A stretch of 33,923 bases of DNA from Dehalococcoidia bacterium. GTDB taxonomy: Bacteria > Chloroflexota > Dehalococcoidia > DSTF01 > JACRBR01. The stretch lies in contig JANPBN010000097.1 in NCBI GenBank assembly GCA_031430415.1, positions 1 to 33,923 of the forward strand. The letters run 5' to 3'. The translations under genes were made by a program, and so were the position numbers. Each line of letters starts with the position of its first letter. The stretch's first letter is position 1. A model generated the notes under the pieces. The model saw nothing but the letters and a program-made list of their open reading frames with translations, was not told the DNA's origin and made no database searches. This document shows positions 4,528 to 31,863 of this stretch, piece after piece.

Positions 4528-4530
4528 TCG

Positions 4531-7972: not shown

Positions 7973-9156
7973 CGCGGCACCCCGGCGGCGGTCCGGGCTT
8001 CATCGAGCGACTGATCGGTGGCCGGAGCTCGGCCGGTGGCCGCGCGGTACACGTCCAATGTCTGGCGGGCTGTCTCCGCCCACGTGTAACGGCTGGCGCG
8101 GGCCCAGCCAGCCACGGACATCATCCGCTGCTCTCCGGGCGATGTGACGATGTCGAGGATTGCGGCGGCAAGAGCGGCATCGTCGAGGGGCGCCACAAGT
8201 CGCGCGGCGTCCCCAAGAATCTCTCGGTGCGCCGCCAGATCGGAGGCGATGACGGGTGTGCCCGCGGCCATCGCTTCGAGCGGCGGCAGGCCGAATCCTT
8301 CGGCGAGTGAAGGAAAGACGAACACTGTGGCATTCCGATACAACAAGGCGAGATCGCCATCGGTGAGGCCGGACACGATACGGACGCGACCATGCAGCCC
8401 AGACCGGCGAATCTCCTCATGGATGGGTATCGCGTCGCCAGAGCCGGCGGCTGCAACGACGACGAGCGCGAGGCCTGGTGCGGCGCTTGCCACGCGCGCA
8501 AACGCCTGAAGGACGGTGATGAGGTTCTTACGCGACTCGAACGAGCCCACGAACAGGACATAAGGCGTGACTTGATCGCGTCGCTCGCCGATGGGTGTCT
8601 GGACAACGCCGTTACAGACAACATCAAGCCGGTCAGCGGGCAGCGCCAGCAGACCAGAGATCTCGGCGCGCGATGCGCGGGAGACAGTGATGACGCGCGC
8701 GGCGCGGCGCACGGCGCCAAGGTTCCAGCGATACCACGCGCGCTGCCGCAACGGCAGCCGACGCGGGCCCTTACCGTACAGCGTCATCGGTATCACGTCG
8801 TGGAGCGTGACGACGAGCGGACACGTTAGGCGACGCGGGACGGGAGGCCATGCTGGCCGTGGATGCACCGTCGGCGCATGAACGACATCCAATCCGAGAT
8901 CGCGGGCTAGCTGAGGCAAGCGCCACATGTACGATGCGAGGAGCGAGAGCTTTCCGAGGTGGGGAACCGGAAGCATGTGTATGCCCACGCCATCGCTCGT
9001 TGTCATCGGGAGATCCGTACCCTCCGGAGCGAACAGCTCAATGCGGTGGTCGCCGGACGTGTCGGCGAGCGCACGTACGAGACCATCGACGTAACGTCCG
9101 ATGCCAGAGTAGCGCGTCTCTGGCCCCAGAATCGACGCGTCGATGCCGATCCTCAC
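7969..9156 (-). CDS. Glycosyltransferase family 4
   Basis: Motif FPSLAEGFGLPPLEAMAAGTPVIASD. Start set at the GTG (V)RIGIDASILG, which forms a GTGA overlap with the upstream stop. The track ORF extends to 9240 with an Arg-rich overlapping extension. Confidence 0.85.
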   Translation of the reverse strand: MRIGIDASILGPETRYSGIGRYVDGLVRALADTSGDHRIELFAPEGTDLPMTTSDGVGIHMLPVPHLGKLSLLASYMWRLPQLARDLGLDVVHAPTVHPRPAWPPVPRRLTCPLVVTLHDVIPMTLYGKGPRRLPLRQRAWYRWNLGAVRRAARVITVSRASRAEISGLLALPADRLDVVCNGVVQTPIGERRDQVTPYVLFVGSFESRKNLITVLQAFARVASAAPGLALVVVAAAGSGDAIPIHEEIRRSGLHGRVRIVSGLTDGDLALLYRNATVFVFPSLAEGFGLPPLEAMAAGTPVIASDLAAHREILGDAARLVAPLDDAALAAAILDIVTSPGEQRMMSVAGWARASRYTWAETARQTLDVYRAATGRAPATDQSLDEARTAAGVPR

Positions 9157-11886: not shown

Positions 11887-12857
11887 TGTGCGAACACCGT
11901 TTCGAGACTGCGCTGTGCTGCGACGTCGACAGGATCGTGCGAATACGGCGCGGGCCCACCGCGGCGGCGGAGCACATCGAGCAACGCGCGCGTCTGGGCG
12001 TGGTAGTAGCTGTCGTGGCGGTGGCGGCGGGAGACCGCCGAGCGGACGCATGTCTTCGCGAGTGTGAGCGCCAGGCGGCCAGCGGCCCATGCGCGCACGA
12101 CCACTCCTCCGTGGCGAAAGGCGAGCATGAAATAGTTACGGCATGCGTAGTACCGCGCGATGCGCGGATCGAGGCGTTTCGTCGACTCGGAGACGGCGTG
12201 CCAGATCCGCGCGCGTGGAGCAAAGTACGTGCGCACGCCGCGTTTGCCGGCGGTGAGACACCAGTCGACGTCTTCGAGATAGAGAAAGTACCGCTCGTCC
12301 ATGGGTCCGGCGATGGCGGCACTTTCCTGCGACAGGAATAGAGAACAGCCAGACGCCCACTGCACTTCGCGCGCGCGATCGAACGATCCCGCTGGCAGGC
12401 CGAGCCCGATGTGCTCGCGATTCAGCCACGGCCACTTGAGGAGGCCACCGGCGCTCCAGATGCGTCCCTCTCCGCCTCCGACGAGGATTTCCGGCGCAAC
12501 GATCGCCGGGCCGTTGACCGTCTCCGCCGTTCGGACGAGTTCGGTGAGCGCGCTTGGGTCGGCGAGCGTGTCGTTGTTGAGCATCCACACGTACCTGACG
12601 CCAGCTTCGCGCGCCCAACGCATTCCCACGTTGCAGGCGCCGGCGTAGCCGAGGTTGCGTCCGGTGCGCACTATCTCGAGCTGCGAAAACTCGCGATCGA
12701 GCTCGTCGGCGGAACCATCGGTCGAGCCGTTGTCGATGACGGCGATGCGATAAGAGGTGTGGTCGAGGGCAAGCAACGAACCGAGACAGCGACGCGTTTG
12801 CGCCGCGCCGTTCCAGTTGATCACCACGATGCCTACCTGCTGCAACATTCCCGTCAT
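11883..12857 (-). CDS. Glycosyltransferase family 2 (WbbL/rhamnosyltransferase-like GT-A)
   Basis: VGIVVINWNGAAQTRRCLGSLLALDHTSYRIAVIDNGSTDGS, then NLGYAGACNVG and MLNNDT. Start at MTGMLQQ lies 5 nt after the upstream stop. The track extension to 13121 overlaps the upstream gene. Confidence 0.85.
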   Translation of the reverse strand: MTGMLQQVGIVVINWNGAAQTRRCLGSLLALDHTSYRIAVIDNGSTDGSADELDREFSQLEIVRTGRNLGYAGACNVGMRWAREAGVRYVWMLNNDTLADPSALTELVRTAETVNGPAIVAPEILVGGGEGRIWSAGGLLKWPWLNREHIGLGLPAGSFDRAREVQWASGCSLFLSQESAAIAGPMDERYFLYLEDVDWCLTAGKRGVRTYFAPRARIWHAVSESTKRLDPRIARYYACRNYFMLAFRHGGVVVRAWAAGRLALTLAKTCVRSAVSRRHRHDSYYHAQTRALLDVLRRRGGPAPYSHDPVDVAAQRSLETVFAQ

Positions 12858-12862
12858 CCCGC

Positions 12863-13525
12863 CTAGAACTCGTTCAGGACGACGCCGAGTACGGTGCTTC
12901 CAAGCCGCTCGATCTGCACGCGCGCGCGACGATGGACCGGCGCACCGGCATTCTGCGCGCGCATGACGTACAGCGCGTTGCCAGCTTTCCGTGCGGCGAG
13001 AAATCCGTCGCTGGAGAGCGTGGTTGGCGGCGTGTCGATGATCGTGTACATGTCCGAAGCGGCGGCGGCCTGAATCGCATCGTCGATGCGATAGCGGTTG
13101 TCCTGATTGGCCTCCGCCCATTGCATGAGGTAGACGCCCGGCCGGTTCGTCTCGGTGACCGACCGCCGCAGTTCCGGCGGAATACCATCGCGGAGTTGGC
13201 TGGCTCCGGCGCGGAACAACCGGCTCAGGGCGCCATGCTCCTCTTCGATCAACAGGACGCGGTGATCCTCGGCGAATGCAACCGCGAGATTCCCGGCGAC
13301 CAGTGATCGCCCATCGCCCGGGTGCGCGCTGACGACGGCGATGGCGCGGTTTGTCGAGTGCGTGAGGATCGCCTCGATATTCGCGCGGAGCAGCCGGAAT
13401 GACTGTGCGACCGCGCCCTCCGCCCGGCGGGAGATCAGCAACTCCGACATGTCCCGCGCGGGAGCAGTGCTGCCCGGACCAACCTGGTTGCCGTTGTGCG
13501 ATGGGGCTGGCGTAATGATCGACAT
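12863..13525 (-). CDS. BY-kinase-like (CpsD/CapB-type, MinD/ParA-fold) ATPase with degenerate catalytic motifs
   Basis: 220 aa, AGGAGG 5 nt upstream of the ATG. It follows the BY-kinase layout: AQSFRLLRANIE, a Walker-A-like VSAHPGDGRSLVAGNLA, and Walker B TIIDTPP. Walker A has R instead of K. The Walker A' position reads LLIEEEHG instead of LLIDaDLR. The protein ends ..GVVLNEF with no C-terminal Tyr cluster. Confidence 0.75.
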   Translation of the reverse strand: MSIITPAPSHNGNQVGPGSTAPARDMSELLISRRAEGAVAQSFRLLRANIEAILTHSTNRAIAVVSAHPGDGRSLVAGNLAVAFAEDHRVLLIEEEHGALSRLFRAGASQLRDGIPPELRRSVTETNRPGVYLMQWAEANQDNRYRIDDAIQAAAASDMYTIIDTPPTTLSSDGFLAARKAGNALYVMRAQNAGAPVHRRARVQIERLGSTVLGVVLNEF

Positions 13526-13533
13526 GCTGCCTC

Positions 13534-14904
13534 CTAACCCGTGATACGTGCGACTCGCCCGATCACGGGCGCCCCGAATTCGCGTTCGATGTCTTCCACG
13601 GTGACCGGCTCGCGTTCGAAGTAGGCCAGCACGTATACGGCGGTCACTGACACGAACACCGCTACGAAGACGCCTAGCGCGTACGTCAGGATCAACCAGA
13701 TCAGGCTTGTCTGCAGATGGGCATTTTGCAGGAGTAGCGCCCGGGCGCTCGCTGGTAACGTCCGCCCGGCGACTACGTCGATGACCTTCTGTTGCAGCGA
13801 GGACAGATGGGTCTCCGCGCGCTGCAAATCGAGGTTGAGCTTGCTGTACTGCGGCTCGAGCCCGGACAGTCGTTGTAATTCCGCCGTCTCGATCAGGATG
13901 GCGTTCCGAAGGACATCGGAGCCGGCCTGCGAACTGGCATCGGTGACGGTCAGCTGGTTCACGAGCGCCATCTGGGACTGGATCGCCCCGTCGAGCTGGG
14001 AGACGTTGTTGATGGATTGAAAGTCGCCGAGCGCGCCGACGGAGCCGTCAAAGTTGGCTTCGGCCTGGGCGAGCTGATCGCGCGCCTGGAGGAGAGGCGC
14101 TTCGCCTGCAGCACCGGCCTGCTCGAGGTCGGAGACACGATCGCGAAGACGAAGGACCGCGCTTTGCGAGAGCCCGACCTCAAACGACAGTCGCTCATAC
14201 TCTGGTTGGAGTCGAAGCAGCGACCCGAGTTGCCCCTGCGCGGCCGAAAGCGACGCGTTCTGCCCCGTTCCCTGCTGACCGCGGCCCGAAGTTGCCGAGA
14301 TCCGCGCCAATTGAAGCTGCGAGATCAGTCCGAGTTTCTGGTCGCGGCGCTGAGTCAGGGCATAGGCGTCGTTGTCGGTCTGAAAGCGCACCAATGCGCT
14401 GCGGGCTACATCGACATCGCCCTGTGCGATGTCGAGTTCTGTCTGGAACGCGCGCCGCACATCGCGACTATCCGGCGTGTTGATCTCGGCGAAGAGCACC
14501 TGCGCTTCCACCGCGGCGATGTTCGCGACGCGCAGCGCCGTTTCCTTGTCCGTGTGCTTGACTCGCACTTCGTACAGGAGGCTCGTGCTGGAACGACCCA
14601 CCGTCAGCTTCGGCTCGATGATCAGCCAGCCGCGCACCTGATCCGGCGTCGTGCCGTCGGCCAGCTTGGCGGCAATCCGTTCCGAAAGCGTCTCGCTTTC
14701 GGCGAGTGCATCGAACCCGATTTGCGCGGGCAAGTACTCGCCCGGCGGCGGGATGTACGACTGCAGTACGGCCACGGTAACGGCCGCCTCCGCCCTATCG
14801 GTGGCGCGGTGATAGGCCCAGAAACCGGCCAACGACACGACGATCGCGACGACAGGTACGAACCACCACCGAAGCAGCGCTCGAACAAACAGTCTCATCT
14901 CCAT
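13534..14904 (-). CDS. Polysaccharide co-polymerase / chain-length determinant (Wzz/CapA-like transmembrane modulator)
   Basis: 456 aa. N-terminal TM (WWFVPVVAIVVSLAGFWAY), a long Gln/Leu/Ala-rich helical middle region, and a C-terminal TM (LIWLILTYALGVFVAVFVSVTAVYVLAYF). It sits directly upstream of the BY-kinase-like gene. SD is AGGGGGTGG. Confidence 0.75.
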   Translation of the reverse strand: MEMRLFVRALLRWWFVPVVAIVVSLAGFWAYHRATDRAEAAVTVAVLQSYIPPPGEYLPAQIGFDALAESETLSERIAAKLADGTTPDQVRGWLIIEPKLTVGRSSTSLLYEVRVKHTDKETALRVANIAAVEAQVLFAEINTPDSRDVRRAFQTELDIAQGDVDVARSALVRFQTDNDAYALTQRRDQKLGLISQLQLARISATSGRGQQGTGQNASLSAAQGQLGSLLRLQPEYERLSFEVGLSQSAVLRLRDRVSDLEQAGAAGEAPLLQARDQLAQAEANFDGSVGALGDFQSINNVSQLDGAIQSQMALVNQLTVTDASSQAGSDVLRNAILIETAELQRLSGLEPQYSKLNLDLQRAETHLSSLQQKVIDVVAGRTLPASARALLLQNAHLQTSLIWLILTYALGVFVAVFVSVTAVYVLAYFEREPVTVEDIEREFGAPVIGRVARITG

Positions 14905-14916
14905 CGACCACCCCCT

Positions 14917-15975
14917 TTAGAGCACCGGCCTGCGAAACCGGATACTTCCACCAAGCAATGCGCCGAACGCGACGCAGTCATACGCAAAGTGAGCCAACGC
15001 CTTCGCAACGGGCCACCGGCCGCTCAACCGGCGCCGTGCAGCAAAGGCACCAAGGTACGGGAGCGTTAGGATGAGAGCCGCGCGGCGCCATCGCGCCAGC
15101 ACGACACCCGCGACGAATGCGTCGAACAGCGCGTGCGTCGGATGTACCCAGACGCCGAGCCACAGGTGACGGCGGAACTCTGGGTATCGTGCGGCCTTGG
15201 CCGGCCAGTTGTAGAAGCGACGAGGCTGCGTCACCCATGAGAATGCGGACAGCCGCATCACTTGATGGTGCACAAGCGCCGTCTCCGCGAACCTGGCGTC
15301 CCAACCGAGGCGGCGCACGCGCCAGCCGAGGTCCACGTCCTCCCAGTAGTGGCAATCCGGATCGAAGCCTCCGGCCGCCAGGATCGCTTCGCGCGGATAG
15401 CAGACATTGGAGGTCGAGAATGAGCCATCCAATCGCCGTGTTTCGATGAAGTGATTGAACAGCGGCTGCCGAGCGCCGGGAAGCGCCGCGGTGCGTCCCT
15501 GGACGATCCCGGTTCCCGCGCCGACAGCGGCGAGCATGGCGCGTAGCCAGCCGGCGGAGGGAACGCAGTCGCTGTCGGTAAATGCGACGTACCGGCCCCG
15601 CGCGAGGTCGACTCCTACGTTACGCGCGATGGCAGGGCCACAGTCACGGACCATTCGCACGCCCGTAAAGTCCACGGACGTGTGAGTGGCAACGTCACGC
15701 ATCAAGGCGGACGAGTCGTCGGTAGATGCGTTGTCGACGACGATCACTTCGTACTCGTCGTGCCGGAGGTTTTGGTCAAGCAGCGCAGCGATCGTTTGGG
15801 CGACGAGGTCGCGGCGATTCCGCGTCGGCACAACGACGGAGATGGCTGGCGCAGCGGAACGCGGGCCGCCGGTAGCGATAATGTCGTACAGGTCACGTCG
15901 CGCGCGGTTAGCGTCCGGCGCGGATGCCTGTGCTGGCGCGACTCCCTGGCCGTTGTGGCGCATCGTCAATGTCAC
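14917..15975 (-). CDS. Glycosyltransferase family 2 with C-terminal membrane segments (paralogue A)
   Basis: ISVVVPTRNRRDLVAQTIAALLDQ, VIVVDNASTDDS, DxD FTDSDCVPSAGWLR, DVDLGWRVRRLGW, hydrophobic C-terminus. Start is either the GTG at 15975 (GTGA overlap with the upstream stop) or the ATG at 15963. The track extension to 16116 overlaps the upstream gene. Confidence 0.8.
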   Translation of the reverse strand: MTLTMRHNGQGVAPAQASAPDANRARRDLYDIIATGGPRSAAPAISVVVPTRNRRDLVAQTIAALLDQNLRHDEYEVIVVDNASTDDSSALMRDVATHTSVDFTGVRMVRDCGPAIARNVGVDLARGRYVAFTDSDCVPSAGWLRAMLAAVGAGTGIVQGRTAALPGARQPLFNHFIETRRLDGSFSTSNVCYPREAILAAGGFDPDCHYWEDVDLGWRVRRLGWDARFAETALVHHQVMRLSAFSWVTQPRRFYNWPAKAARYPEFRRHLWLGVWVHPTHALFDAFVAGVVLARWRRAALILTLPYLGAFAARRRLSGRWPVAKALAHFAYDCVAFGALLGGSIRFRRPVL

Positions 15976-17012
15976 AGGACAATGCTCCGCTTCCGAATGC
16001 TGCTCTGGATCAGCGTGGCAGAGAGCAACGCCGAACTCTGCGCTTGCAGGGCGAACCTGGCGGCCGCTCGCCCCCAGCGCTTGGGAGGCCATACATCGCG
16101 CCGAACAGCGGGCCACGTCGTCTGGATCCAGGGCAGCGTCAGGAGCAACCCCGCACGGTGGCGCCGGCTCGCGGCCACACCAACGGCGGCAAGGCAGAAC
16201 ATGGCGCTCTGACGGTGCAGGAAGTAGCGGCCATAGAACGACGTCCGTCGCAGCTCTGGAATACGCGCCGCAAGCTCAGGCAGAATCTGGGCCGCGAGCG
16301 GCTGAAACAGGTAGCTCTTGAGCGAGATGGGTGAAGCCTGGTGGTAGACGATGGCATCCTGGGCAAACTCGGATCCGCTCCCCGCGCGCTTGATCCGCCA
16401 CGCGAGGTCCGTGTCATCGCCTCCCACCGGTTGCCCCCACGAGTAGGTGCGGAACTGTTCGTTGAAGCCCTGGTTCGCGATGAAAGCCTCGCGGCGGTAG
16501 AAGACGTTGGCCGTCGCGTACAGTCCGTCCTCATGATTGATCTCGTAGATCTGGTGCATGAAGAACGCCGGGTCGGGTCCATCCCACACCGGGCGAATCG
16601 GGCCGCAAACAACATCGACGCCCGGCTCGAAGCGGACGACCGCGCTGCGCAGCCACCCGGGCGAGGGCACGCAGTCGCTGTCGGTAAAGGCGAGGATCTC
16701 GCCGGATGCCATTTCGGCGCCGCGGTTACGAGAAGCGGCCGGGCCGTCGTCATCCTTACGCAGATAGCGCACGGGAAAGGGGCTCGCATTCATCGCGGCG
16801 CGCACGACGCCTTCGGTGCCGTCCGTGGAGGAGTTGTCGACGACGATGACTTCCATGCGGTCGACCGGATAGACCTGATTCGAGAGCGCGCCGAGAACAT
16901 CGCTCAGGAGGTGCGCCCGATTTCGCGTCGGGACGATCACGGTGACGCTCGGCCAGGCGGCGCGCAGGCCGGCTGCTTCTTCGTACGGCTGGACGGCGCT
17001 AGTACTCACCAA
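15972..17012 (-). CDS. Glycosyltransferase family 2 with C-terminal membrane segments (paralogue B)
   Basis: 346 aa, GTG start. SVTVIVPTRNRAHLLSDVLGALSNQ, VIVVDNSSTDGT, FTDSDCVPSPGWLR, DTDLAWRIKRAG. Same architecture as 14917..15975. Confidence 0.85.
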   Translation of the reverse strand: MVSTSAVQPYEEAAGLRAAWPSVTVIVPTRNRAHLLSDVLGALSNQVYPVDRMEVIVVDNSSTDGTEGVVRAAMNASPFPVRYLRKDDDGPAASRNRGAEMASGEILAFTDSDCVPSPGWLRSAVVRFEPGVDVVCGPIRPVWDGPDPAFFMHQIYEINHEDGLYATANVFYRREAFIANQGFNEQFRTYSWGQPVGGDDTDLAWRIKRAGSGSEFAQDAIVYHQASPISLKSYLFQPLAAQILPELAARIPELRRTSFYGRYFLHRQSAMFCLAAVGVAASRRHRAGLLLTLPWIQTTWPAVRRDVWPPKRWGRAAARFALQAQSSALLSATLIQSSIRKRSIVL

Positions 17013-17793
17013 GGGAACCCTCCCGTTTTGCCCGGTTCAAGGACCAGGTGAACGAATAGATCGCAGGCGGCAACAGGATCGCCGCCATGATGGTGAGGAT
17101 GACCACCTGCGGCGCCACGTCGATGAGGCTGGCGCCATCGAAGGCGGACCGGATGCCGGTCAGCGCGTGTGTCAGCGGGACAAGTTGGGTCAGCGGCTCG
17201 ACCCAGTCAGGGAGCGCCTGCACCGGGTAGATGGCGCCGCCAAGCACAGCTGTGACGGCGGAGTACGCGATCAGCACCGGATCGCCCTGCTTCACGAGAA
17301 GCATGAACGCCGCGGACATCGCACCCATCGCGAGAAAGGTGAGCATGGCGGGGATGAAGACCGCGATGACGGCGACCGGGTCGGCGCTGTGCCAGAAACC
17401 AAGAACGGCGACACCGAATACGACGAAGAGCGACATCCGGAACATGGAGAACAGGAAGCGGAATCCCCACAGCGATGCGAGGAGTTGGGTGTCGCTGATT
17501 GGTGCGAGCAGCATCGGCTCGAGTGTTCCCGCGCGCTGGTTGTCGTTGATCGCCCGCGGTATCGCCGCGAGACCCTGCATGAAGACATCCATGAACGCGA
17601 GCCCAAGGAAGATGAACGCGACGTAGCTGCCGTTCTCCTCTTCGATCAAGTCGGAGCGGCCGTTGATGGCGGTTCCCGTGAAGTAGATGAGGCCGATCAT
17701 GGTGAAGACGCCCGCGACCTGCCACACAGCGGCCAGCCGGTAGCTACCCCAGATCAAGAAGTCGCGGCGGAGGTACGCCATCGCCACGCTCAT
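16999..17793 (-). CDS. ABC-2 type exporter permease (Wzm/TagG-like)
   Basis: About 264 aa with six hydrophobic helices and the ABC-2 signature region QRAGTLEPMLLAPIS. ATG (MSVAMAYLRRDF) forms an ATGA overlap with the ATPase gene stop. The track extension to 17889 is Arg-rich. Confidence 0.8.
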   Translation of the reverse strand: MSVAMAYLRRDFLIWGSYRLAAVWQVAGVFTMIGLIYFTGTAINGRSDLIEEENGSYVAFIFLGLAFMDVFMQGLAAIPRAINDNQRAGTLEPMLLAPISDTQLLASLWGFRFLFSMFRMSLFVVFGVAVLGFWHSADPVAVIAVFIPAMLTFLAMGAMSAAFMLLVKQGDPVLIAYSAVTAVLGGAIYPVQALPDWVEPLTQLVPLTHALTGIRSAFDGASLIDVAPQVVILTIMAAILLPPAIYSFTWSLNRAKREGSLGEY

Positions 17794-18821
17794 GCCGGCA
17801 CCCGCTCTCGCGCTTCGACGCCGCGGCTGCGGGCGACGATCATGGTGAACATCTCCTCGAGAGTGAGTTCGCGTTTTCCGCACGACCACACATCGCCGCC
17901 GCTCTCGACGATGGACCGAACGATTGCGGGTACGGCTGCGGTGTCGCGCTTCAGGGCAAGTTCGAGGCGGTACTGATCGCCGCTGATGAGTACGGCCTTC
18001 AGCGAATCAACGCCCGGCACGGCGCGTAGTGACTCGATGGCCGCGTAGGTCAGCCCGCCGATGACGATCTGGTACAACTCGTCGGCCTGAAGCAGGTCAC
18101 GAAGTTCACCGATTTCGCCGATCATCTGGATCTCGCCAGAATCGATGAATGCAATCCGGTCGCAGAGCATTTCGGCTTCGGCCATGATGTTCGTCGCTAG
18201 GATCACGGTGCGTCGCTCATTGACGACGCGCTCGCGCACGAGTTGCCGGAGATCGAGTGCCGCCATCGGATCGAGTGCCCGCGTCGGTTCGTCCATGATC
18301 AGAATGTCAGGATCGTTGAGAAGCCCACGGGCGATGGATGCGCGCTGCTTCATCCCGGACGAGTAGTGGTGCATGCGGAGGTTCGCGGCGTGGGAGAGGC
18401 CCACGAGTTCGAGCAGTTCAAGCGCACGGCGCCGCGCGTCGCGGGCGGGAATACCGTAGAGCGCGGCGTAGAACAGCAGATTGTCGAGCGCCGAAAGGCG
18501 CCAGTAGAACGTGCGCTCGTCGCCGTACACGACGCCGATGCGCCTCCGAACCGCGAGGCTGTCCTTCACGACATCGAGCCCCGTGACGGTCGCCGTGCCG
18601 GAGGTCGGGATGCTGAGCGTCGAAAGGATCTTGACGAGCGTCGTCTTACCCGCGCCGTTCGGGCCGAGCAGTCCGAAGATCTCTCCATGCGGCACCGTCA
18701 GGCTGACGCTGTTCAATGCGACCTTGCCGGGCTCATGCTTGAAGATCGACTTCCATCCCTGCTGGGCCGGGAACTGCATCACAAGGTCGCGTGTCTGGAT
18801 CGCCGGCAGTGCGTGACTCAT
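17790..18821 (-). CDS. ABC transporter ATP-binding protein (DrrA/CcmA-like NBD with a ~100-aa C-terminal extension)
   Basis: Walker A GLLGPNGAGKTT, signature YSSGMKQR, Walker B ILIMDEPTRALD, H-loop region ILATNIM. Start MSHALPAIQTRDL is preceded by GGAGGA and forms an ATGA overlap with the upstream stop. The track ORF to 19271 is an Arg-rich extension. The C-terminal ~100 aa after the NBD are non-ABC. Confidence 0.9.
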   Translation of the reverse strand: MSHALPAIQTRDLVMQFPAQQGWKSIFKHEPGKVALNSVSLTVPHGEIFGLLGPNGAGKTTLVKILSTLSIPTSGTATVTGLDVVKDSLAVRRRIGVVYGDERTFYWRLSALDNLLFYAALYGIPARDARRRALELLELVGLSHAANLRMHHYSSGMKQRASIARGLLNDPDILIMDEPTRALDPMAALDLRQLVRERVVNERRTVILATNIMAEAEMLCDRIAFIDSGEIQMIGEIGELRDLLQADELYQIVIGGLTYAAIESLRAVPGVDSLKAVLISGDQYRLELALKRDTAAVPAIVRSIVESGGDVWSCGKRELTLEEMFTMIVARSRGVEARERVPA

Positions 18822-20635
18822 AGCGCGATCCTCCGCGCCTTGATGGAACCCACAACGAAACCGGCGAGCCACAGTCCCTGGCGTGCGCCGATCCCGGCAA
18901 CCGTTTTGGCTGAGTGAGGCCAGTTGCGTACCGGCCAGACATCGATGCGCGAGCTGACGGTGCCTACCCATGGCGCCGCGACGAGCAGCCATCGCCGCTG
19001 CCGGCGAGCCGCCGCCAGCGCGATGCCGGCCGCGGCAAGATCGAAGTACATCGTCTGGCGCGAGACGAAGATGCCGCTCACGAGCGTGCGATTTGCGTAC
19101 TCCGGTGCACGGGCAAGCAGCATCGGTACCTGCGCTGCGATGCGCATCTCCCGGCGCGGCCACCCTGCATTGGCCGCGTCGCGTGGGAACACGCGAAACT
19201 GGTAGACCTCTTCGCGGAACCGGGAGTTCCAGCCAAGCCGCCTCAAGCGCCACGCTAGCTCGGTATCCCATCCAAGCCTCGGTCCGCTCTGCGAATCGAA
19301 GGAGTCGGCGAAGCCACCCGCGGCAAGGGCGACGGCGTTGCGGTAAAAGGTGTTCGTGATCGGGAACATGTGCTCCGATGGCGGCGACTTCTCGTCCGGA
19401 TCGGGGCGCGTTCCGGCTACCTCGAGGTAGCGCTCCATGCTGCCATCGGCTGCGAAGATCGGCCCGGTGATGACCGCGGTGTCGCCGTCGAACCAGGTGA
19501 TCGCCGACTCGATCCAGTCCGGCGGCACGTGACAGGTGTCTTCGATGTGCGCTGAGATATCGCTGCGGAGCCCGGCCAGGACTTCGTTGCGAGAGGTTGG
19601 GCCGTCCACGCCAATGACCGTGCGGCGCACGTCACAGGCCGACGACCGCGCCATCGCGGCCACGATGTCCGGCGTATCGCGGTGGCGTCCGTCGTCGAGC
19701 ACGACGATCTCACGAAGCCCAGCGGGATACGTCTGGTCTTGCACGGCATCGAGCGTGGCGCGCAGGGCGGCGCCGCCGCTCCGCACGGACACGACGACGC
19801 TCACCGTTGGGTCGTCGATGCGCGTCTTGAGGCCTGCGCCATCGCCTGGGCGGCGCGCGCACTCGAGGATCAGAACATCGCGCAGGGTGGGGAGCGCCCA
19901 ACGAATCAGGCGGCCGGCTTTCCGCAGGGCGTATTCCGGCACGCTGAGGAGTTCCATCTCCATGAACGACTGCTCTGCCGTGACGGCGTCGCACCGCTGT
20001 ACGTGGAGGCCCGCTCCGCGCGCAATGTCGCGTAGTTCATCGCGATGGTAGAGTCGCGCCGTGTCGGTCGAAGGCCAGCCGAGCGAGAGCGCTGCAGTTT
20101 CGCCCTTCGGCGTGAAGGGCTTCCCGCGCATCGCCGAAAGCCGAAGGTCGAGTTTCGCCTGGTTTCGCGTCGCGACCAGGAGTTTGCCATGTGCTGCAAG
20201 CATGCGGCGGAGCGCGCGGAGTAGGCGCTGCGCATTCGGCTCGTCGAGTGCTTCGAGCACCAACGGAAGCACGATGAGGTCGTACGGCCCATCGGTCGCC
20301 TCGATGTCCGGCAGCGCGCTTGTAGTGACGTGGCGCGTCACGAAGCTCTTGGCCCCCTCAGTGAGGTAGGTGCCGGGAAGCTGCCACACACGAAGGTCCT
20401 TCGCGAATCGCGCCACGGACTCAACGAGCAGCGCGCTGCCGCCGATGATGAGCGTCCGGCCCGATGCGTGATGCTTCGACCGGCTGACAAGGTCGGCGAC
20501 GAGCGGCGCACCAAGCGTGAGATGGTGGTACGCGCGTTCGGCGATCTCGAGGTCATCGAGCACGTTCGCGACGAACGCGCGGGCCTCTTCTGGTGGCGGT
20601 GCGACAGCAGGAGCGGTGAGTGTCGTCGTCGTCAC
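18818..20635 (-). CDS. Fusion protein: N-terminal Rossmann/methyltransferase-like domain, GT2 glycosyltransferase domain, C-terminal membrane segments
   Basis: 605 aa; GTG start in a GTGA overlap. N-terminal ~270 aa: RTLIIGGSALLVESVA...YDLIVLPLVLEAL...GKLLVATRN, a class-I MTase-like layout with an atypical motif I. Middle: VSVVVSVRSGGAALRATLDAVQDQTYP, VVLDDG, DTELAWRLRRLGW (GT2). Hydrophobic C-terminus as in the two GT2 paralogues. Confidence 0.75.
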   Translation of the reverse strand: MTTTTLTAPAVAPPPEEARAFVANVLDDLEIAERAYHHLTLGAPLVADLVSRSKHHASGRTLIIGGSALLVESVARFAKDLRVWQLPGTYLTEGAKSFVTRHVTTSALPDIEATDGPYDLIVLPLVLEALDEPNAQRLLRALRRMLAAHGKLLVATRNQAKLDLRLSAMRGKPFTPKGETAALSLGWPSTDTARLYHRDELRDIARGAGLHVQRCDAVTAEQSFMEMELLSVPEYALRKAGRLIRWALPTLRDVLILECARRPGDGAGLKTRIDDPTVSVVVSVRSGGAALRATLDAVQDQTYPAGLREIVVLDDGRHRDTPDIVAAMARSSACDVRRTVIGVDGPTSRNEVLAGLRSDISAHIEDTCHVPPDWIESAITWFDGDTAVITGPIFAADGSMERYLEVAGTRPDPDEKSPPSEHMFPITNTFYRNAVALAAGGFADSFDSQSGPRLGWDTELAWRLRRLGWNSRFREEVYQFRVFPRDAANAGWPRREMRIAAQVPMLLARAPEYANRTLVSGIFVSRQTMYFDLAAAGIALAAARRQRRWLLVAAPWVGTVSSRIDVWPVRNWPHSAKTVAGIGARQGLWLAGFVVGSIKARRIAL

Positions 20636-21825
20636 GCGACCCCCGCCATGCGGCTATCGCGGGTGCGGCTCGATGCCATCGCCTCGAGCATGCCCTCGAG
20701 CTTGGCGCCAACGCGCGTGAGCGACCACGGCTCGGCCCACTCACGGCACGCCGCCGCGGTGCCCGGCTGGCGAGCGAGGTCGATGCCTGCGAGAACCGCG
20801 TCGGCGAGATCGTGGGCCGTGCGGTCACTCAGTAAATCGAAGTAGGTCTTGATCGGAACGGTCACGCCGACGCGTGGATCGGTGATGATCTCGCCGGGGC
20901 CGCTGTAGGCGCTACAGACGACGGGCGTCCCGGCAGCGAGCGACTCCGTCACCACCATGCCAAAGGCCTCCTCGACGGAGGGCAGTACGGTCACAGCGGC
21001 CTGAGCGTATGTGTGCGGCAAGCCTTCCAGCGTGCCGGGGCCGCGGATCTCGATGGCGTCGCGCGCCGAAGCGCTGCGCACGAGGTCGAGGCGCTCGAGC
21101 GTGTACACGTCGGAGCCGAAGTCGAATCCGACGAGACCGAACGGGCCGGCAAGCACGAGACGCGCCTCCGGGCAGCGGCGGTGTATTTCATCCCACGCGC
21201 GGAGCAACAGCGGGCCGCCCTTGCGGGGGTCGCCGAGGTCGCCGGTAAACAGCACCTGCGGGCGCGACAGATCCCGGCCGCCGAGTGGCTTGAATCGGTC
21301 CATATCAACGGGCGGTGGCAGTACCTCGACCGGAACGCCGTACTGCGCGGTGGCCTCGGCGGCGCCGTTCGGTGTCAGCGCGGCGACCTGGTTGGCGCGG
21401 CGCATCAACTGGTTGAACATCCACCGATCGAGCCGCCCGGGCCAGTAGTGATTCTTGACGATGAGGTGATAGAGGTACGGCAGGCCGATCCCCGCCTTGA
21501 GCAGAGGCGCCGCAACTACCGAGGAATAGCTCCACATGTGCGCGACGTCGTACTTGCCACGGATCAGGTGTTCCGTCGCACCGAGCCCGAACCCGTAGAG
21601 CCGCGCCAGCGGCCCGTACCGGTAGGTCAGCGGGTGCGAGAACTGGCGCAGATAGATTACGCGCACGGCGCCGTCATACGTCACGCGGGGCGCGCCGGGT
21701 TTGGACGTGATGATGTCCACCTCATGCCCCTGCGCCGCGAGGTAGCCGGACAGGTCGTGAATGCACCGCTCAGCGCCGCGGCGGATGTACGGCCAATACG
21801 TGGGATACGGGAAGACCACCTTCAT
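20632..21825 (-). CDS. Glycosyltransferase family 4
   Basis: 397 aa. N-terminus MKVVFPYPTYWPYIRRGAERCIHDL. Donor motif LPSVEEAFGMVVTESLAAGTPVVCSAYSGPGEII. Confidence 0.9.
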   Translation of the reverse strand: MKVVFPYPTYWPYIRRGAERCIHDLSGYLAAQGHEVDIITSKPGAPRVTYDGAVRVIYLRQFSHPLTYRYGPLARLYGFGLGATEHLIRGKYDVAHMWSYSSVVAAPLLKAGIGLPYLYHLIVKNHYWPGRLDRWMFNQLMRRANQVAALTPNGAAEATAQYGVPVEVLPPPVDMDRFKPLGGRDLSRPQVLFTGDLGDPRKGGPLLLRAWDEIHRRCPEARLVLAGPFGLVGFDFGSDVYTLERLDLVRSASARDAIEIRGPGTLEGLPHTYAQAAVTVLPSVEEAFGMVVTESLAAGTPVVCSAYSGPGEIITDPRVGVTVPIKTYFDLLSDRTAHDLADAVLAGIDLARQPGTAAACREWAEPWSLTRVGAKLEGMLEAMASSRTRDSRMAGVA

Positions 21826-21864
21826 GTGGTTGTTGTGCCTCGGCTTCGTTGCAATCCGCGCGTA

Positions 21865-22914
21865 CTACTTGAACGCGTGGAAGACGACTTTCGGAATCGG
21901 ATCCTGGAAGTTTGCGTGCAGGGTGAAGCGGGACTTCTCTTCCATGCGCGAGAACCGCGCGAGCTGAGCCCACACGCGATAGCACGTCGTGTTCGGGCGC
22001 CACCACACGTCACTCCGGCCCGAACCCGCGCGGGCGAATTGCGCCAGCGAGTTGCCGACGAACGCCTCGAGATCAGGGTGGTAGACATCGGCGAAGATCG
22101 CGAAGCCACCCGGCTTGACGACCTGCCAGACGGACTCCATCGCGCGGAGCGGCTCGCGAAGGTGAATGAGCAGGTCGCTGACGAAGACCATGTCGAACTG
22201 GCCGAGCTTCTCCGGATTCGCGTCGTAGACGCTGCAGATCACACGGTTGACCTTGGAGTTCTTGATCTCCTTGGCGATGCGGAATCCGACACCCATCTCG
22301 TGATCGACGCCCGACTTGTCGAACTCGTCCATCCAGTTCCGCGGAATGTCGATGTCGCGCATCGATGCGACGTCGATCGAGGTCACATCAGCGCCACGCC
22401 GCTCGAACTCGAACGCCCAGTAGCCGTCGAAGGTCGCGACATCGAGCACGCGCATGCCGGTCATGTCTTCGGGCAGATGGTAGAACGGCAGTTGGTCGCG
22501 GTGGTCGACGTAGCCCGGCGTCGAGACGCCATGGCCCAGGTCGATCGTGTGATACCACTGGTAGCCCGAGATCTTCTCGATGATCGCGCGCGCTTCGGGC
22601 GATGCCGGCTCGGTCAGCGGAGCGATCGGCTTGTTGGTGGGGCGGCCGGCCCGATAGATCGTCGGGTCGTCGTCGGTGTTGGGCGTGTGCCCATTGCCGT
22701 TCGTGTGCCCGTTGCCGTTCCCGTTGTGCCCACCCTTGCGCAGGCCGCTGATGCGGTCGAGCGCCGGGCGCACGACGTACTTGTACGGCACGCTGTTGCG
22801 CACTCGCTCAGCTTGCGTCGCGTCGAGCGCGATGCCGAGCTCCACGGAGCCGATGCGGATGCGGCGTTCGCGCTTCAGTGGCTCGGTCGGCCAGTTGCTT
22901 GTCTGCTGTGGCAT
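21865..22914 (-). CDS. Class I SAM-dependent methyltransferase, paralogue 1 (CmoB/DUF1698-like layout)
   Basis: Start at MPQQTSNW is preceded by GGAGGAGG; the track start 22977 has no RBS. Shared blocks with the other two paralogues: WYHTIDLGHGVSTPGYVDHR, VLDVATFDGYWAFEFERRGA, FDMVFVSDLLIHLREP. It carries a Gly/Asn/His-rich insert (GGHNGNGNGHTNGNGHT). Confidence 0.85.
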   Translation of the reverse strand: MPQQTSNWPTEPLKRERRIRIGSVELGIALDATQAERVRNSVPYKYVVRPALDRISGLRKGGHNGNGNGHTNGNGHTPNTDDDPTIYRAGRPTNKPIAPLTEPASPEARAIIEKISGYQWYHTIDLGHGVSTPGYVDHRDQLPFYHLPEDMTGMRVLDVATFDGYWAFEFERRGADVTSIDVASMRDIDIPRNWMDEFDKSGVDHEMGVGFRIAKEIKNSKVNRVICSVYDANPEKLGQFDMVFVSDLLIHLREPLRAMESVWQVVKPGGFAIFADVYHPDLEAFVGNSLAQFARAGSGRSDVWWRPNTTCYRVWAQLARFSRMEEKSRFTLHANFQDPIPKVVFHAFK

Positions 22915-22948
22915 GGTTCCTCCTCCGGTTTGGTGCGGCCGCACATCG

Positions 22949-23992
22949 TTATTCTGCGTGCGCGCCTGGGGGGACATGCCCCTTCAGAACTACCTTGTGG
23001 AACTTCCCGGCGCGGTTGGTCGCTTCGAACCGCGACACCTCTTCGATCGGGTCGAAGCCGGCGATCTCCATCATCCGTCGCATCGACTTGATGCTGTGGC
23101 GCCACCAGATGCCCATAACGCCGGTGCCCGTGAACTCGCTGACCGGGCGGTCCATCTCTTCGAGCTGTGGGTCGTAGGGCTCGGCGACGATGGCGCAGCC
23201 GCGAGAGACCGAGAACATGTTCTCGATCACCGTCTGCGGATCGCGCAGGCGCAGAAGCAGCTGGCTGATCAGCACGACATCGAACATGCCGAGCCGTTCG
23301 GGTGACACGTCGTAGACATTGACGGCGCGCCGCTCGGCCTTCGAGCCCAGGATCTGCTTCGCAAGCTGGAATCCCTGCCCGGGATATTCGATGCCGATGC
23401 TCGCCTGCTGGTCGTTCCAGATCTTGCGGTGGGAATCTTGCTGCTCGCCCCGTTCGCGCATGGCCTTCAGCTTCGCGAGGCGGGGAATGTCGTGCTCGAG
23501 CGGCGAATCGACATCGATGCCGACGACCTCGGTCGCGCCGCGGCGCTCCATCTCGAAGGACCAGAATCCGTCGTAGGTGCCAATGTCCAACCCTCGCCTG
23601 CCGGTGAGGTCTTCGGGCAGACCGAACAGCGGGACTGTGGCGCGGTTGTCGATGAAGCCCGGCGTGACGACGCCGTGCCCCAGGTCGATGGTGTGATACC
23701 AGCCGATCCCGGCGATGCGTTCGCGCATGTCCCGGGCCACCGGATCGTCATCGAGGGGCAGCGCCTCGGCTGTTGGCGCTTCGTTGACGGAGGTGACGTT
23801 CGGCGGTGCAGCATGCTCGCGCCGCCGGACGATGTCGAGGCCGGGACGCACGACGCGGCGATACAGACCGCTGTGCCGGACTTGCTCGGCCCGCTCAGCG
23901 TCGGCCGAGACTTCGACGCGGAAGCCGGCGATGCTGAAATCACGCTTGGTACGCGAAGCCAATTTTGGTTTCCTCGAGCGTTCGGCGGCCAC
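22949..23992 (-). CDS. Class I SAM-dependent methyltransferase, paralogue 2; first gene of the long downstream operon
   Basis: 347 aa, GTG start (GAGG 9 nt upstream); the alternative is TTG at 23962. Blocks: WYHTIDLGHGVVTPGFIDNR, GLDIGTYDGFWSFEMERRGA, FDVVLISQLLLRLRDP. Confidence 0.85.
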   Translation of the reverse strand: MAAERSRKPKLASRTKRDFSIAGFRVEVSADAERAEQVRHSGLYRRVVRPGLDIVRRREHAAPPNVTSVNEAPTAEALPLDDDPVARDMRERIAGIGWYHTIDLGHGVVTPGFIDNRATVPLFGLPEDLTGRRGLDIGTYDGFWSFEMERRGATEVVGIDVDSPLEHDIPRLAKLKAMRERGEQQDSHRKIWNDQQASIGIEYPGQGFQLAKQILGSKAERRAVNVYDVSPERLGMFDVVLISQLLLRLRDPQTVIENMFSVSRGCAIVAEPYDPQLEEMDRPVSEFTGTGVMGIWWRHSIKSMRRMMEIAGFDPIEEVSRFEATNRAGKFHKVVLKGHVPPGAHAE

Positions 23993-24031: not shown

Positions 24032-24065
24032 ATCTTATGGACAGGCGGTTAACCGATGGTTAACC
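24032..24065 (-). promoter_or_regulatory. SARP-type promoter: heptamer direct repeat plus -10 box upstream of methyltransferase paralogue 2
   Basis: The minus strand reads GTTAACC-ATCG-GTTAACC-GCCTGTCCA-TAAGAT. On the plus strand this is two GGTTAACC palindromes at 24047-24054 and 24058-24065, with ATCTTA at 24032-24037. It lies in the only long (207 nt) intergenic gap of the cluster, about 40-70 nt upstream of the start at 23992. Confidence 0.6.
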
Positions 24066-24199: not shown

Positions 24200-25345
24200 T
24201 TAAATTCGGCGAATGCGCCGGCGGAGCGACTGCCAGAACGACGGCCTCATTTTCAGCACATCGTGCATCGGCAGCTCGCTGAGCGCTGCAACCAGCCGGC
24301 CCCCCGTCGCCGCGCCCACGCCGTCATCGAGCTGCTCATCGACATCGAGCATGGAACTGAGGATCACGATCTGACTGAACTGGTTGGCCACGGCGAGCCG
24401 GTAGTCGAGCCAGCAATCGTCATAGGAGTAATCTCGCACGCCGCCCTCCACGAGGAGCTCGTGGTATTGAGGCAGCAGCTCTCGTTCCGCGAGCGCGCGA
24501 TCGTTCGGCTGCAGGCTGCTGACGAACAGGTTCGCGATATCGATAGGCCCGCGGCCCCGCACGGCTGTCTGCCAGTCGATGAATGCTCGCGGCCCCCCCG
24601 CTTCGTCGAAGAGCACGTTGTTGACGCGCAGATCGCCGTGAACGAGCGTCTGCGGCGCCGTCGACAGCCGATCGACGACGGACTGGTCACGGGACAGCGT
24701 CGCACCGAGGCGAAGGATCACCGGCGGCATGTGCCGGCCGAAACGCCCCTCGAACGAACGCCACGCTCCCGGTCCTTCGGCGACGCCCAGCGCGGTGACG
24801 GATGGATCGTTGGGCGTGGGTAGCCAACGTTGGTCGCGAAGCTCGGCGGATTGCCACCAGGCCGCGTGCATTCCAGCTATCTGCTCGACGATGGCGCTCG
24901 CCTCGCTCAGGCTGCAGCCCCGGAGGAGGTCGCCGGCACGGGCACCGGTTACGTCCTCGAGCAGAAGCACGGCGCTCAGACCATCGGCGACGCCAAAGTA
25001 CATGGCGGGAACAGGGACGCCCACGCGCTCGGCCAGGGTGTCGTAGAAGTGCTGCTCGCGCTCGTAGATGCGTAGCCGCGACGCGATCTCGCGTGTGGCG
25101 GGGGCGCTCGACGGGAACTTCGCGATGAGTGTTACCGGGGCCTGATCCTCGGGGATGTCGTAGGTCAGACGCACGCGCACCACGCGCCCGGCCATGCCCT
25201 TGCCGGCGGGCTCCACATGAATGGACGCGACGTTCGCGCGCTGCAGCACAACGCCTCGGAGCGCAGCGGTGAGCCACGCGGCGCTGAGAGACTCCGGGCC
25301 GTCCGGGATGTCGCGGACGGGTGTGTGGCGCGTCGCGATTATCAT
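24200..25345 (-). CDS. APH/choline-kinase-fold phosphotransferase (eukaryotic-like kinase fold)
   Basis: 381 aa. Catalytic loop LVHGDLRVNNVLF (HxDxxxxN) and metal-binding IDWQ. Confidence 0.8.
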   Translation of the reverse strand: MIIATRHTPVRDIPDGPESLSAAWLTAALRGVVLQRANVASIHVEPAGKGMAGRVVRVRLTYDIPEDQAPVTLIAKFPSSAPATREIASRLRIYEREQHFYDTLAERVGVPVPAMYFGVADGLSAVLLLEDVTGARAGDLLRGCSLSEASAIVEQIAGMHAAWWQSAELRDQRWLPTPNDPSVTALGVAEGPGAWRSFEGRFGRHMPPVILRLGATLSRDQSVVDRLSTAPQTLVHGDLRVNNVLFDEAGGPRAFIDWQTAVRGRGPIDIANLFVSSLQPNDRALAERELLPQYHELLVEGGVRDYSYDDCWLDYRLAVANQFSQIVILSSMLDVDEQLDDGVGAATGGRLVAALSELPMHDVLKMRPSFWQSLRRRIRRI

Positions 25346-30496: not shown

Positions 30497-30529
30497 AACC
30501 TAGCAACGGGTGGTTAAGCCTCGGTTAAG
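30497..30529 (-). promoter_or_regulatory. SARP-type promoter: heptamer direct repeat plus -10 box upstream of the phosphoglycosyl transferase operon
   Basis: The minus strand reads CTTAACC-GAGG-CTTAACC-ACCCGTTGC-TAGGTT. On the plus strand this is GGTTAAG at 30512-30518 and 30523-30529, with AACCTA at 30497-30502. The repeats overlap the last codons and stop of the 71-aa ORF. Confidence 0.6.
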
Positions 30530-30729
30530 TCGCGCCTTGCGTCATCCGTCTTGATGACGGTTCGAATAAATGAAAGCGCGTGAGCAAACTCGCGAAAGCG
30601 CATTCCGGCGTTTGTCGCGACGTGCCGAATCTCGCCGTGCTCCACCATGCCGGGCTCTTCGACCCACAGGCGGATGACGAACGTCTCATAACGCTTTGTG
30701 CTGGCGGGATGTCCGCGAGTGGTCCGCAA
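30514..30729 (-). CDS. Small (71 aa) protein of unknown function
   Basis: TTG start, preceded by GGGGGTAG. The sequence MRTTRGHPASTKRYETFVIRLWVEEPGMVEHGEIRHVATNAGMRFREFAHALSFIRTVIK.. has the pattern F-V-I-R-L-W..E, then G-x-I-x-H-V, then F..L..FI. I recognise this pattern from uncharacterised small proteins. It has its own SARP-type promoter. Confidence 0.5.
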   Translation of the reverse strand: MRTTRGHPASTKRYETFVIRLWVEEPGMVEHGEIRHVATNAGMRFREFAHALSFIRTVIKTDDARRDLTEA

Positions 30730-30795: not shown

Positions 30796-30828
30796 ATGGT
30801 ACGGGGACGTGGTTAACTGGTAGTTAAG
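30796..30828 (-). promoter_or_regulatory. SARP-type promoter: heptamer direct repeat plus -10 box upstream of the 71-aa ORF
   Basis: The minus strand reads CTTAACT-ACCA-GTTAACC-ACGTCCCCG-TACCAT. On the plus strand this is GGTTAAC at 30811-30817, AGTTAAG at 30822-30828 and ATGGTA at 30796-30801. It lies about 30 nt downstream of the SARP gene stop. Confidence 0.55.
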
Positions 30829-30858
30829 GCCGTGCGACGCCCTGGACGAGAGGGGTGA

Positions 30859-31863
30859 TCATGGAAATAGCGACTCAAACGCACGTACCGTGTCTGTGCC
30901 GGGAGAAGCGCCGATCTCTCGTTTGAGCATCGTGCGACAGACGGCGTACCAGGCGCCGGCGCGCGCATGCTGATTCAACGCGCCGTGGCACTGCATCAGC
31001 ATGCGGTAGGCGTCCTCGCGGCAAGGATCCGCATCGATGATCTTGTGGCAATAGCGAATGGCGTCCCGCGCATCGCCGTTCTGCATGGCAAGTTCCGCGA
31101 GATTGCTCACGATCTCCAAGTACACGTCGCGTAGCTGTTCGCGACGGATGATCGTCCAATCGTCGTAGATGTCTTCTTCGAGCAGGTCGCCGGCGTACAG
31201 ACGCTCGGCCTCGCGGTACTCGCGGCGCGCGAGTTCAATCTCTTGGGCAGCTTGAAACGCCGTGCCGCGCCGCCAGTGCCGCTCCAGCGATTCGGTATCG
31301 ATCCAGACCTTGGCATCCCGGTTCAGGCCGTATGTGCCATCCCGGAAGACCACCCAGCGGTCATGCGTGCCCGCCGTCCTTCCGGGTTCCAGAATGCTGC
31401 GCAGGTTGTGCGCTGCGACCTTCAGTGACACGCCGCCGGTGACCGGGTCGGTGTCAGGCCACAGCATCTCCATAAGTGCGTCTCGCGGCAAGATGCGATC
31501 CCTGTGGCTGGCGAGGATCTTCAAGAGCGAACGAGCCTTGCCACCGAGGCGAGCGGTGACATCCTCACCATTCACAGCGACACGGAACGACGCCATCATG
31601 TGGATCGCGAGGCTAGGGGACGGGGCGGCGCCGCGATCTGTTTTGATCGCGTCCGTATCGCTCGCTGCATCGTCGCGCAGCAGGTAGGGCGGCACGTCCG
31701 ACCGGGGGGACGCCATTCTGCGTGTGGTCACGTTGTGCCCCTCGATAACTGGAGCGCCCTCAACGCGGAAACGACGGACTGTAGCGCGGCCGCGAGTGCC
31801 GCACGATGCATGCTCGAAAACAGAAGCCACCCCCAGAGGCACGGCTTCCTTGCCTTGCACCAT
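30859..31863 (-). CDS. SARP-family transcriptional activator (OmpR-type winged helix plus BTAD domain; AfsR/DnrI/RedD family)
   Basis: FRVAVNGEDVTARLGGKARSLLKILASHRDRILPRDALMEMLWPD is a Trans_reg_C-like domain. The TPR-like BTAD follows (AQEIELARREYREAERLYAGDLLEEDIYDDW...REDAYRMLMQCHGALNQHARAGAWYAVCRTMLKREIGASP). The start is uncertain: ATG at 31863 gives an ~88-aa N-terminal extension, while ATGs at 31599/31596 (MMASFRV) give a canonical ~245-aa small SARP. None has a clear SD. Confidence 0.85.
   Translation of the reverse strand: MVQGKEAVPLGVASVFEHASCGTRGRATVRRFRVEGAPVIEGHNVTTRRMASPRSDVPPYLLRDDAASDTDAIKTDRGAAPSPSLAIHMMASFRVAVNGEDVTARLGGKARSLLKILASHRDRILPRDALMEMLWPDTDPVTGGVSLKVAAHNLRSILEPGRTAGTHDRWVVFRDGTYGLNRDAKVWIDTESLERHWRRGTAFQAAQEIELARREYREAERLYAGDLLEEDIYDDWTIIRREQLRDVYLEIVSNLAELAMQNGDARDAIRYCHKIIDADPCREDAYRMLMQCHGALNQHARAGAWYAVCRTMLKREIGASPGTDTVRAFESLFP

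Follow-up and report, generated by a model that had tools for sequence, protein, structure and literature searches.

A double repeat in the gap between a kinase gene and a methyltransferase gene, referred to here as site A, is interpreted as an internal promoter of the SARP type that lacks a -35 element, lies inside a surface-glycan cluster and is activated by the SARP encoded with this cluster. We assign this reading a probability of about two in three (0.68). The geometry of the site fits the rule published for SARP promoters, by which direct repeats follow each other at 11 or 22 bp and 8 bp separate the 3' repeat from the -10 hexamer (PMC10936776). The window analysed is the whole 33.9-kb contig (33,923 nt) of a 2.85-Mb metagenome-assembled genome with 66% G+C from an uncultured soil Chloroflexota.

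Layout of the glycan locus and its predicted transcripts

The minus-strand genes from 30729 to 3385 constitute a surface-glycan assembly locus, as read from Pfam matches and the gene map of the window. The gene order starts with a conserved 71-aa ORF, an initiating sugar transferase, an epimerase/dehydratase and a nucleotidyl transferase. It continues with three paralogous methyltransferases, a DUF5122 propeller protein and an APH/EcKL kinase, followed by eleven GT2/GT4 glycosyltransferases, one of which is fused to a methyltransferase-like region, and ends with an ABC-2 exporter, a Wzy_C-like protein and a GH99-like protein. The features that define the regulatory layout of the locus are:

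30859..31650, minus strand: small SARP gene with OmpR-type winged helix and BTAD domain (Pfam), just upstream of the glycan locus
24200..25345, minus strand: APH/EcKL-type kinase gene (Pfam), last gene of the predicted proximal operon, without a terminator after it
22949..23962, minus strand: class I methyltransferase gene (Pfam Methyltransf_23), first gene of the predicted distal operon, frame open from GTG 23992
3385..22977, minus strand: remainder of the predicted distal operon in tight packing, with methyltransferase, GT4/GT2 glycosyltransferase, ABC-2 exporter, Wzy_C-like and GH99-like genes
3373..3401, no strand assigned: 12-bp GC-rich hairpin between convergent genes (-29.6 kcal/mol, z -5.5)

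For the methyltransferase gene, TTG 23962 is a more likely start than GTG 23992, because a ribosome-binding site (GAGGAAA) precedes the TTG and the orthologues align from residue 15-16. The gap between the kinase and methyltransferase genes measures at least 207 nt; with the TTG start it amounts to 237 nt and the leader to about 60 nt.

In the initial annotation no convincing terminator was seen after the kinase gene at 24200, and we reached the same result. Between the kinase stop and the boxes no terminator-like site consisting of a GC-rich hairpin and a U tract was found, and 24020-24215 contained no unusually stable fold (z -0.6 against shuffled sequence). Rfam families gave zero matches across the entire window, and the small ORFs in the gap were merely short frames without conservation. 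Further downstream, the largest intergenic gap within the distal operon is 39 nt (21826-21864), which agrees with the earlier statement that no gap exceeds about 40 nt down to about 3385 and that a transcript of roughly 20 kb is to be expected; we predict about 20.6 kb. The hairpin at 3373-3401 is likely to form the end of this operon.

Most likely the cluster is thus divided into a proximal unit of 6.3 kb and a distal unit of 20.6 kb, with a separate promoter for the 71-aa ORF. This predicted division is drawn from the SARP geometry of site A, its conservation in five clusters, the lack of a later promoter-sized gap and the lack of a preceding terminator. The annotation had described two SARP-driven operons. 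Of this claim, the internal start is backed by the SARP-type geometry and by genome comparison, in which 5/5 clusters keep the site, whereas the role of the SARP as the activator is rivalled by a PhoB-like regulator.

Elements of site A

The double box and the TAAGAT hexamer facing the methyltransferase gene were present exactly as first described, the string quoted at that time (CGGTTAACCGATGGTTAACCGG) being located at 24046-24067 on the plus strand. The site comprises:

24058..24065, minus strand: distal (upstream) repeat GGTTAACC with core TTAACY, from the sequence
24047..24054, minus strand: proximal (downstream) repeat GGTTAACC, 11 bp from the distal repeat and 9 nt ahead of the -10
24032..24037, minus strand: -10 hexamer TAAGAT of the TAnnnT class, from the sequence

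The two copies of GGTTAACC are 11 bp apart from start to start, and the minus strand reads GGTTAACC-atc-GGTTAACC-gcctgtcca-TAAGAT. The distance of 9 nt between the end of TTAACC and the -10 becomes the canonical 8 only if the following semi-conserved G/A is counted into the repeat; in 15/16 sites one of these two bases follows TTAACC. None of the hexamers found 16-18 nt upstream of TAAGAT (CCATCG, ACCATC and AACCAT) resembles TTGACA, hence a -35 of this type is absent, and a consensus scan of 23000-25500 did not find a sigma-70-type promoter. Four properties expected of a SARP promoter are combined at site A: repeats with an 11-bp period, about 8 bp to the -10, no -35 and a SARP encoded alongside.

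A promoter reading from the boxes into the plus strand was considered and rejected. Nine nt downstream on this strand the sequence is GATTTG and not TAnnnT, which makes the boxes unidirectional. A second TAAC pair, ATTTAACC-cgc-CAATAACT, is located at 24187-24205 on the minus strand, 140 bp upstream of the boxes. This pair was discarded as a site. No -10 accompanies it, its sequence overlaps the stop and the conserved C-terminal codons of the kinase gene, and G019 lacks it; a similar pair occurs in L020. It may just represent conserved C-terminal codons.

Proposed activation of site A

According to the proposed mechanism, two 11-bp direct-repeat units with the core TTAACY, spanning approximately -40 to -19, would replace the -35 element. 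The TAAGAT -10 would follow, and transcription is predicted to begin near 24025. A head-to-tail pair of the cluster SARP (30859..~31650) would bind both repeats on one face of the helix and would recruit RNA polymerase by analogy to AfsR, with region 4 of sigma docking on the activator and not on a -35 element. The resulting transcript of about 20.6 kb would extend from the methyltransferase gene to the hairpin at about 3385. Since the boxes are not preceded by a terminator, transcripts reading through from the proximal operon probably supplement those begun internally. Three sister promoters, serving the small ORF, the proximal 6.3-kb operon and a secreted TSP3-repeat protein, would be turned on by the same activator.

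Sister promoters and rarity of the layout in the genome

The sister promoters of site A, designated B, C and D, were identified by their pattern:

30796..30829, minus strand: promoter C, CCTTAACT-acc-AGTTAACC-N9-TACCAT, ahead of the 71-aa ORF (30514..30729); orthologous position kept in 11 other loci
30497..30530, minus strand: promoter B, ACTTAACC-gag-GCTTAACC-N9-TAGGTT, ahead of the phosphoglycosyl transferase gene
2196..2229, plus strand: promoter D, GCTTAACC-gcg-GGCTAACC-N9-TATCGT, ahead of the TSP3-repeat protein gene

The layout nnTTAACY-N3-nnTTAACC-N9-TAnnnT is found four times in the 2.85-Mb genome, and all four occurrences are on this contig, intergenic and correctly oriented. The pattern YTAACY-N5-YTAACY-N8-10-TAnnnT also resulted in four genomic matches, which are the same four sites, compared to about 0.015 expected by our own estimate from base composition. 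With a weight matrix derived from 12 sites of three other genomes, the four sites of the window scored 22-30 bits and site A 29.2 bits. The maximum in shuffled genomes was about 16-18 bits, a value obtained with a 16-site matrix and not with the 12-site one. A chance origin of site A is excluded. Repeated motifs other than the boxes were not seen in the cluster.

Sites orthologous to promoter D precede the TSP3 genes of G019 and G014. In the window, the -10 of this promoter (TATCGT, 2224-2229) overlaps GTG 2228, which opens the TSP3-repeat ORF; the start of this ORF is therefore probably the in-frame ATG 2291 behind GGAGAG. The 71-aa ORF (30514-30729, minus strand) contains the motif YETFVIRLW...HGEIRHV...RF, has no Pfam or NCBIfam match and is kept after the first box promoter, with 39-54% identity, in all eleven other SARP loci that reach past it.

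The SARP gene and its association with the boxes

The SARP of the window scored above the Pfam cut-offs for both of its domains (Trans_reg_C 31.7 bits, cut-off 26.2; BTAD 78.8 bits, cut-off 22.1) and matched the AfsR SARP domain (8hvr_I, E 9e-5) and EmbR (2fez, E 2e-4) over its full length. By these sequence matches it qualifies as a bona fide small SARP. Its ORF is open to ATG 31863 (334 aa). Homology among the orthologues begins only at about residue 71-81, so that translation probably starts further downstream and the protein measures about 250-265 aa. The orthologues share the putative recognition helix SLKVxxHNLR.

SARP orthologues were retrieved by an alignment-based scan of genome contigs; a query with the single protein gave none. 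In 12 loci with an orthologous SARP gene a TAACY box promoter is located close by. Eight metagenome contigs carry SARP orthologues of 50-62% identity, and in 8/8 of them a TAACY box promoter lies immediately 3' of the SARP stop. The box after the SARP stop persists in contigs whose downstream cluster is arranged in another gene order. No box promoter accompanies the SARP homologues of 32-36% identity. Among 41 related genomes, 4-5 strict matches to the layout occurred only in the three with a SARP orthologue, all of them within the cluster, and the other genomes had 0-2. The boxes always accompany the SARP orthologue wherever the contig extends far enough, a synteny which, across such close kin, does not count as independent evidence.

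In five metagenome contigs (L122-L125 and L128) ABC exporter genes directly adjoin a module of the SARP gene, a box promoter, the small ORF and a phosphoglycosyl transferase gene, so that the regulatory head is found again with a glycan cluster of different organisation.

Conservation of the promoter in related genomes

Five syntenic clusters were compared, namely that of the window and those of G019, L020, G009 and G014. The SARP of the window shares 62-64% identity with that of G019, 63% with that of L020 and 43-45% with that of G009, where the SARP gene is divergently oriented; the G014 contig ends short of the SARP position. A box promoter is located directly upstream of the orthologous methyltransferase gene in 5/5 clusters. 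The orthologous sites are:

G019: CCTTAACT-ccc-GGTTAACC-N9-TACACT
L020: GGTTAACT-gtg-ACATAACC-N9-TATGAT
G009: CGTTAACT-ggg-ACTTAACT-N10-TACTCT
G014: GGTTAACT-ggc-CGTTAACC-N9-TATATT

The flanks have diverged too far for a free MAFFT alignment, which misplaced the boxes, and a box-anchored comparison was used instead. Conservation was then confined to the TTAAC cores and the TA...T hexamer, with the flanks at background; the mean majority-base count over the five clusters is 4.05 of 5 in the box versus 2.7-2.8 outside.

The other cluster promoters show the same constraints. The TTAACY core is invariant in 40/40 half-sites, derived from 20 cluster promoters in five genomes, and the 11-bp period is found at 20/20 cluster sites. 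The spacing of 9 nt to the -10 is shared by the three other sites of the window and by 15/16 sites in the other four clusters, the exception being the G009 orthologue of site A with 10 nt, and TAnnnT stands at equal distance in the other cluster sites.

The head promoter and the methyltransferase promoter are present wherever sequence is available, and the other internal box promoters vary in number. The number of internal promoters thus appears to be evolutionarily fluid. Extra box promoters without a counterpart in the window were observed before the GT4_c orthologue (G019 and G009) and before the DUF5122 orthologue (L020 and G009). The positions of such extra promoters are 13864(-) in L013, 14909(-), 33835(-) and 33861(+) in the joined G009 stretch (L017+L018+L015), and 5009(+) in L020. 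G009 has a back-to-back divergent pair of box promoters. In G014, the methyltransferase orthologue (G014:C12:355896-356885) contains one in-frame TGA, and the adjoining methyltransferase paralogues look fragmented. Either decay of this cluster copy or an assembly error may be the cause.

Possible alternative regulators of site A

A different regulator of the OmpR family has to be considered for the same boxes. A PhoB/PhoP-like regulator encoded at the pstS...phoU locus (C320) might bind them as a tandem dimer, i.e. as PHO-type operators, and turn on the cluster when phosphate is limiting; it might do so independently of the SARP, in competition with it or in cooperation. We regard this as a real but rather unlikely rival. 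When pstS-family genes were retrieved by protein family alone, with the motif not used, ten sites of the form CGTTAAyn-N3-CGTTAAyn-N9(10)-TAnnnT were found upstream of them in nine related genomes and, in addition, at the pstS of our own genome; TTAA-core direct repeats of this period and spacing precede pstS-family genes in at least 10 related genomes. Such pstS boxes occur across the order, also in genomes lacking this SARP. The own pstS (TIGR02136, 270.8 bits, above the cut-off) shares a contig with genes of a PhoU-like protein and, at C320:8543-9253, a PhoB-like regulator in an operon-like arrangement, and strict single matches in SARP-less genomes precede pstS-like, histidine-phosphatase and OmpR-type regulator genes. 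By definition a PHO box contains two direct-repeat units of 11 nt; in Streptomyces, sites of PhoP and AfsR overlap, and the Pho regulon activates teichuronic-acid genes (PMC4415409). At site A, too, two 11-nt units replace the -35. Of the pstS-type box CGTTAAyn, site A shares the TTAA core but not the CG; the genes downstream are devoted to glycan synthesis and export, and the polymer they make may or may not spare phosphate. Given the common geometry, an OmpR-family PhoB-like regulator could bind the cluster boxes as well. What speaks against such a regulator acting alone is the sequence of the half-sites and the company they keep. TAAC[CT] is present in 40/40 cluster half-sites versus 6/22 pstS half-sites (Fisher 3e-10) and CG at positions 1-2 in 6/40 versus 15/22 (5e-5), all of these being counts that are not phylogenetically independent; site A itself has GG and not CG at positions 1-2. 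Moreover, the boxes always travel with the SARP orthologue where the contig reaches far enough, and a cluster-situated activator needs target sites, for which the cluster offers no other repeated motif.

The symmetry of the repeats suggests a second kind of alternative. The initial annotation stated correctly that each repeat of site A is a perfect 8-bp palindrome, unlike at the other three sites; two such repeats occur only at site A among the four sites of the window (the others being GCTTAACC/GGCTAACC, ACTTAACC/GCTTAACC and CCTTAACT/AGTTAACC), and the 21-nt sequence CGGTTAACC-gat-GGTTAACCG is itself an inverted repeat. The palindromes could accordingly be bound at this junction alone by a further factor, a repressor or co-regulator that forms symmetric dimers. 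Evolution of the site makes this very improbable, and the proposal of a second dimeric factor did not survive the comparison: the dyad is not kept in the orthologues (CCTTAACT/GGTTAACC, GGTTAACT/ACATAACC, CGTTAACT/ACTTAACT and GGTTAACT/CGTTAACC), both palindromes being found in 0/4 orthologous sites and none at all in three, and the GG..CC flanks are not conserved across these sites. GGTTAACC is found in 4/40 cluster half-sites, as expected with positions 1-2 free. A regulon of this palindrome was searched for and dismissed; of its 5 copies in the 2.85-Mb genome, the three outside site A are isolated and without a partner. Nor did Pfam matches and gene content point to any regulator gene in the cluster other than the SARP gene. 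The double palindrome is rather a by-product, because the TTAA core is self-complementary and the flanking positions 1-2 are free. A further alternative, in which the repeat arose by chance or has no function and a single transcript from the promoter near 30500 covers the entire cluster, agrees with the missing terminator after the kinase gene and is nevertheless extremely improbable in view of the genome-wide uniqueness of the layout, the fixed distance to TAnnnT and the retention of the site at the same junction in five diverged genomes.

Activation by the cluster SARP is our preferred interpretation. The pstS promoter of this genome (C320:3860-3905) has three CGTTAAyn repeats, and the same class of repeats with an 11-bp period and 9-10 nt to TAnnnT occurs at the loci L097-L108. 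The CGTTAAyn repeats probably represent the PHO box of this lineage and are closely related to the SARP boxes of the cluster. That the SARP and a PhoB-like regulator recognise overlapping TTAA-core repeats, so that the cluster would integrate a pathway signal and phosphate status, is a speculative and rather unlikely idea. If it held true, cross-talk in the style of PhoP and AfsR would have arisen outside the actinomycetes and would govern the synthesis of an envelope polymer instead of antibiotics.

Comparison with known systems

Small SARPs of actinomycetes of the ActII-ORF4, DnrI and RedD type are encoded at the edge of their clusters, paired repeats are located at several promoters, and internal promoters with such repeats divide the clusters into operons. 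The system of the window resembles this type in having a SARP gene at the edge and repeats shared by several promoters including an internal one. It differs in that its target is a polysaccharide assembly and export locus and its host belongs to another phylum; SARPs are described mainly from actinomycetes, where they control secondary-metabolite clusters (PMC10936776).

The closest structural model is AfsR on the afs box of the afsS promoter in Streptomyces coelicolor (8hvr, 8k60, 8jke). The 22-bp afs box covers -40 to -19, and region 4 of sigma sits on the activator dimer (PMC10936776). As at site A, the afs box consists of two 11-bp units at about -40 to -19 and is followed by 6 bp and the -10 hexamer, the -35 being weak or absent. 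AfsR likewise has an OmpR-type winged helix and a BTAD domain, and the protein of the window matches its SARP domain over the full length. In contrast to AfsR, the core recognised here would be TTAACY and not the afs box sequence, the protein is a small SARP without NOD and TPR domains, the host is a member of the Chloroflexota, and the target is a surface-glycan cluster instead of a regulator of antibiotic synthesis.

PHO boxes of PhoB/PhoP and the overlapping operators of PhoP and AfsR in Streptomyces (afsS, pstS, phoRP and glnR) also consist of 11-nt units arranged head to tail in place of the -35 (PMC4415409). By analogy, the pstS and cluster boxes of the lineage studied here, which share the TTAA core and the geometry, may recall two regulators with overlapping sites. 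The two sets of boxes are distinct in detail: the cluster boxes have an invariant TAACY with positions 1-2 free, whereas CGTTAA is favoured and positions 7-8 are variable in the pstS boxes. The PhoP-activated teichuronic-acid genes of Bacillus subtilis, the tua operon with its TTAACA-like PhoP repeats, provide a further parallel, since there too an envelope glycopolymer operon lies behind direct repeats of an OmpR-family activator; unlike that operon, the glycan locus has a dedicated SARP gene.

The design found here is the classical one, in which a small SARP encoded in the cluster acts through paired repeats at several promoters, and is not a new mechanism. New are the core motif TTAACY, the Chloroflexota host and the glycan locus as the target, by which the SARP promoter design is extended to another phylum and another class of targets. 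For this large surface-glycan locus a well-supported regulatory map is obtained with a single small SARP and four promoters, among them the internal one that is conserved, and from this map the fragment suited to activating the cluster in a heterologous host can be chosen. The similarity to the pstS boxes suggests that envelope glycan synthesis may be tied to phosphate status, a link that can be tested.

A further box promoter outside the cluster

On another contig of the same genome a fifth box-like promoter, CCTTAACG-gcc-CGTTAACG-N9-TATCGT, is located at C2:2204(-) and scored 20 bits, i.e. above the shuffle maximum. It precedes a gene of the histidine-phosphatase family and may belong either to the SARP or to the Pho regulon. 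The orthologues of this gene in G001 and G018 have CCTTAACC-ccc-CGTTAACC.
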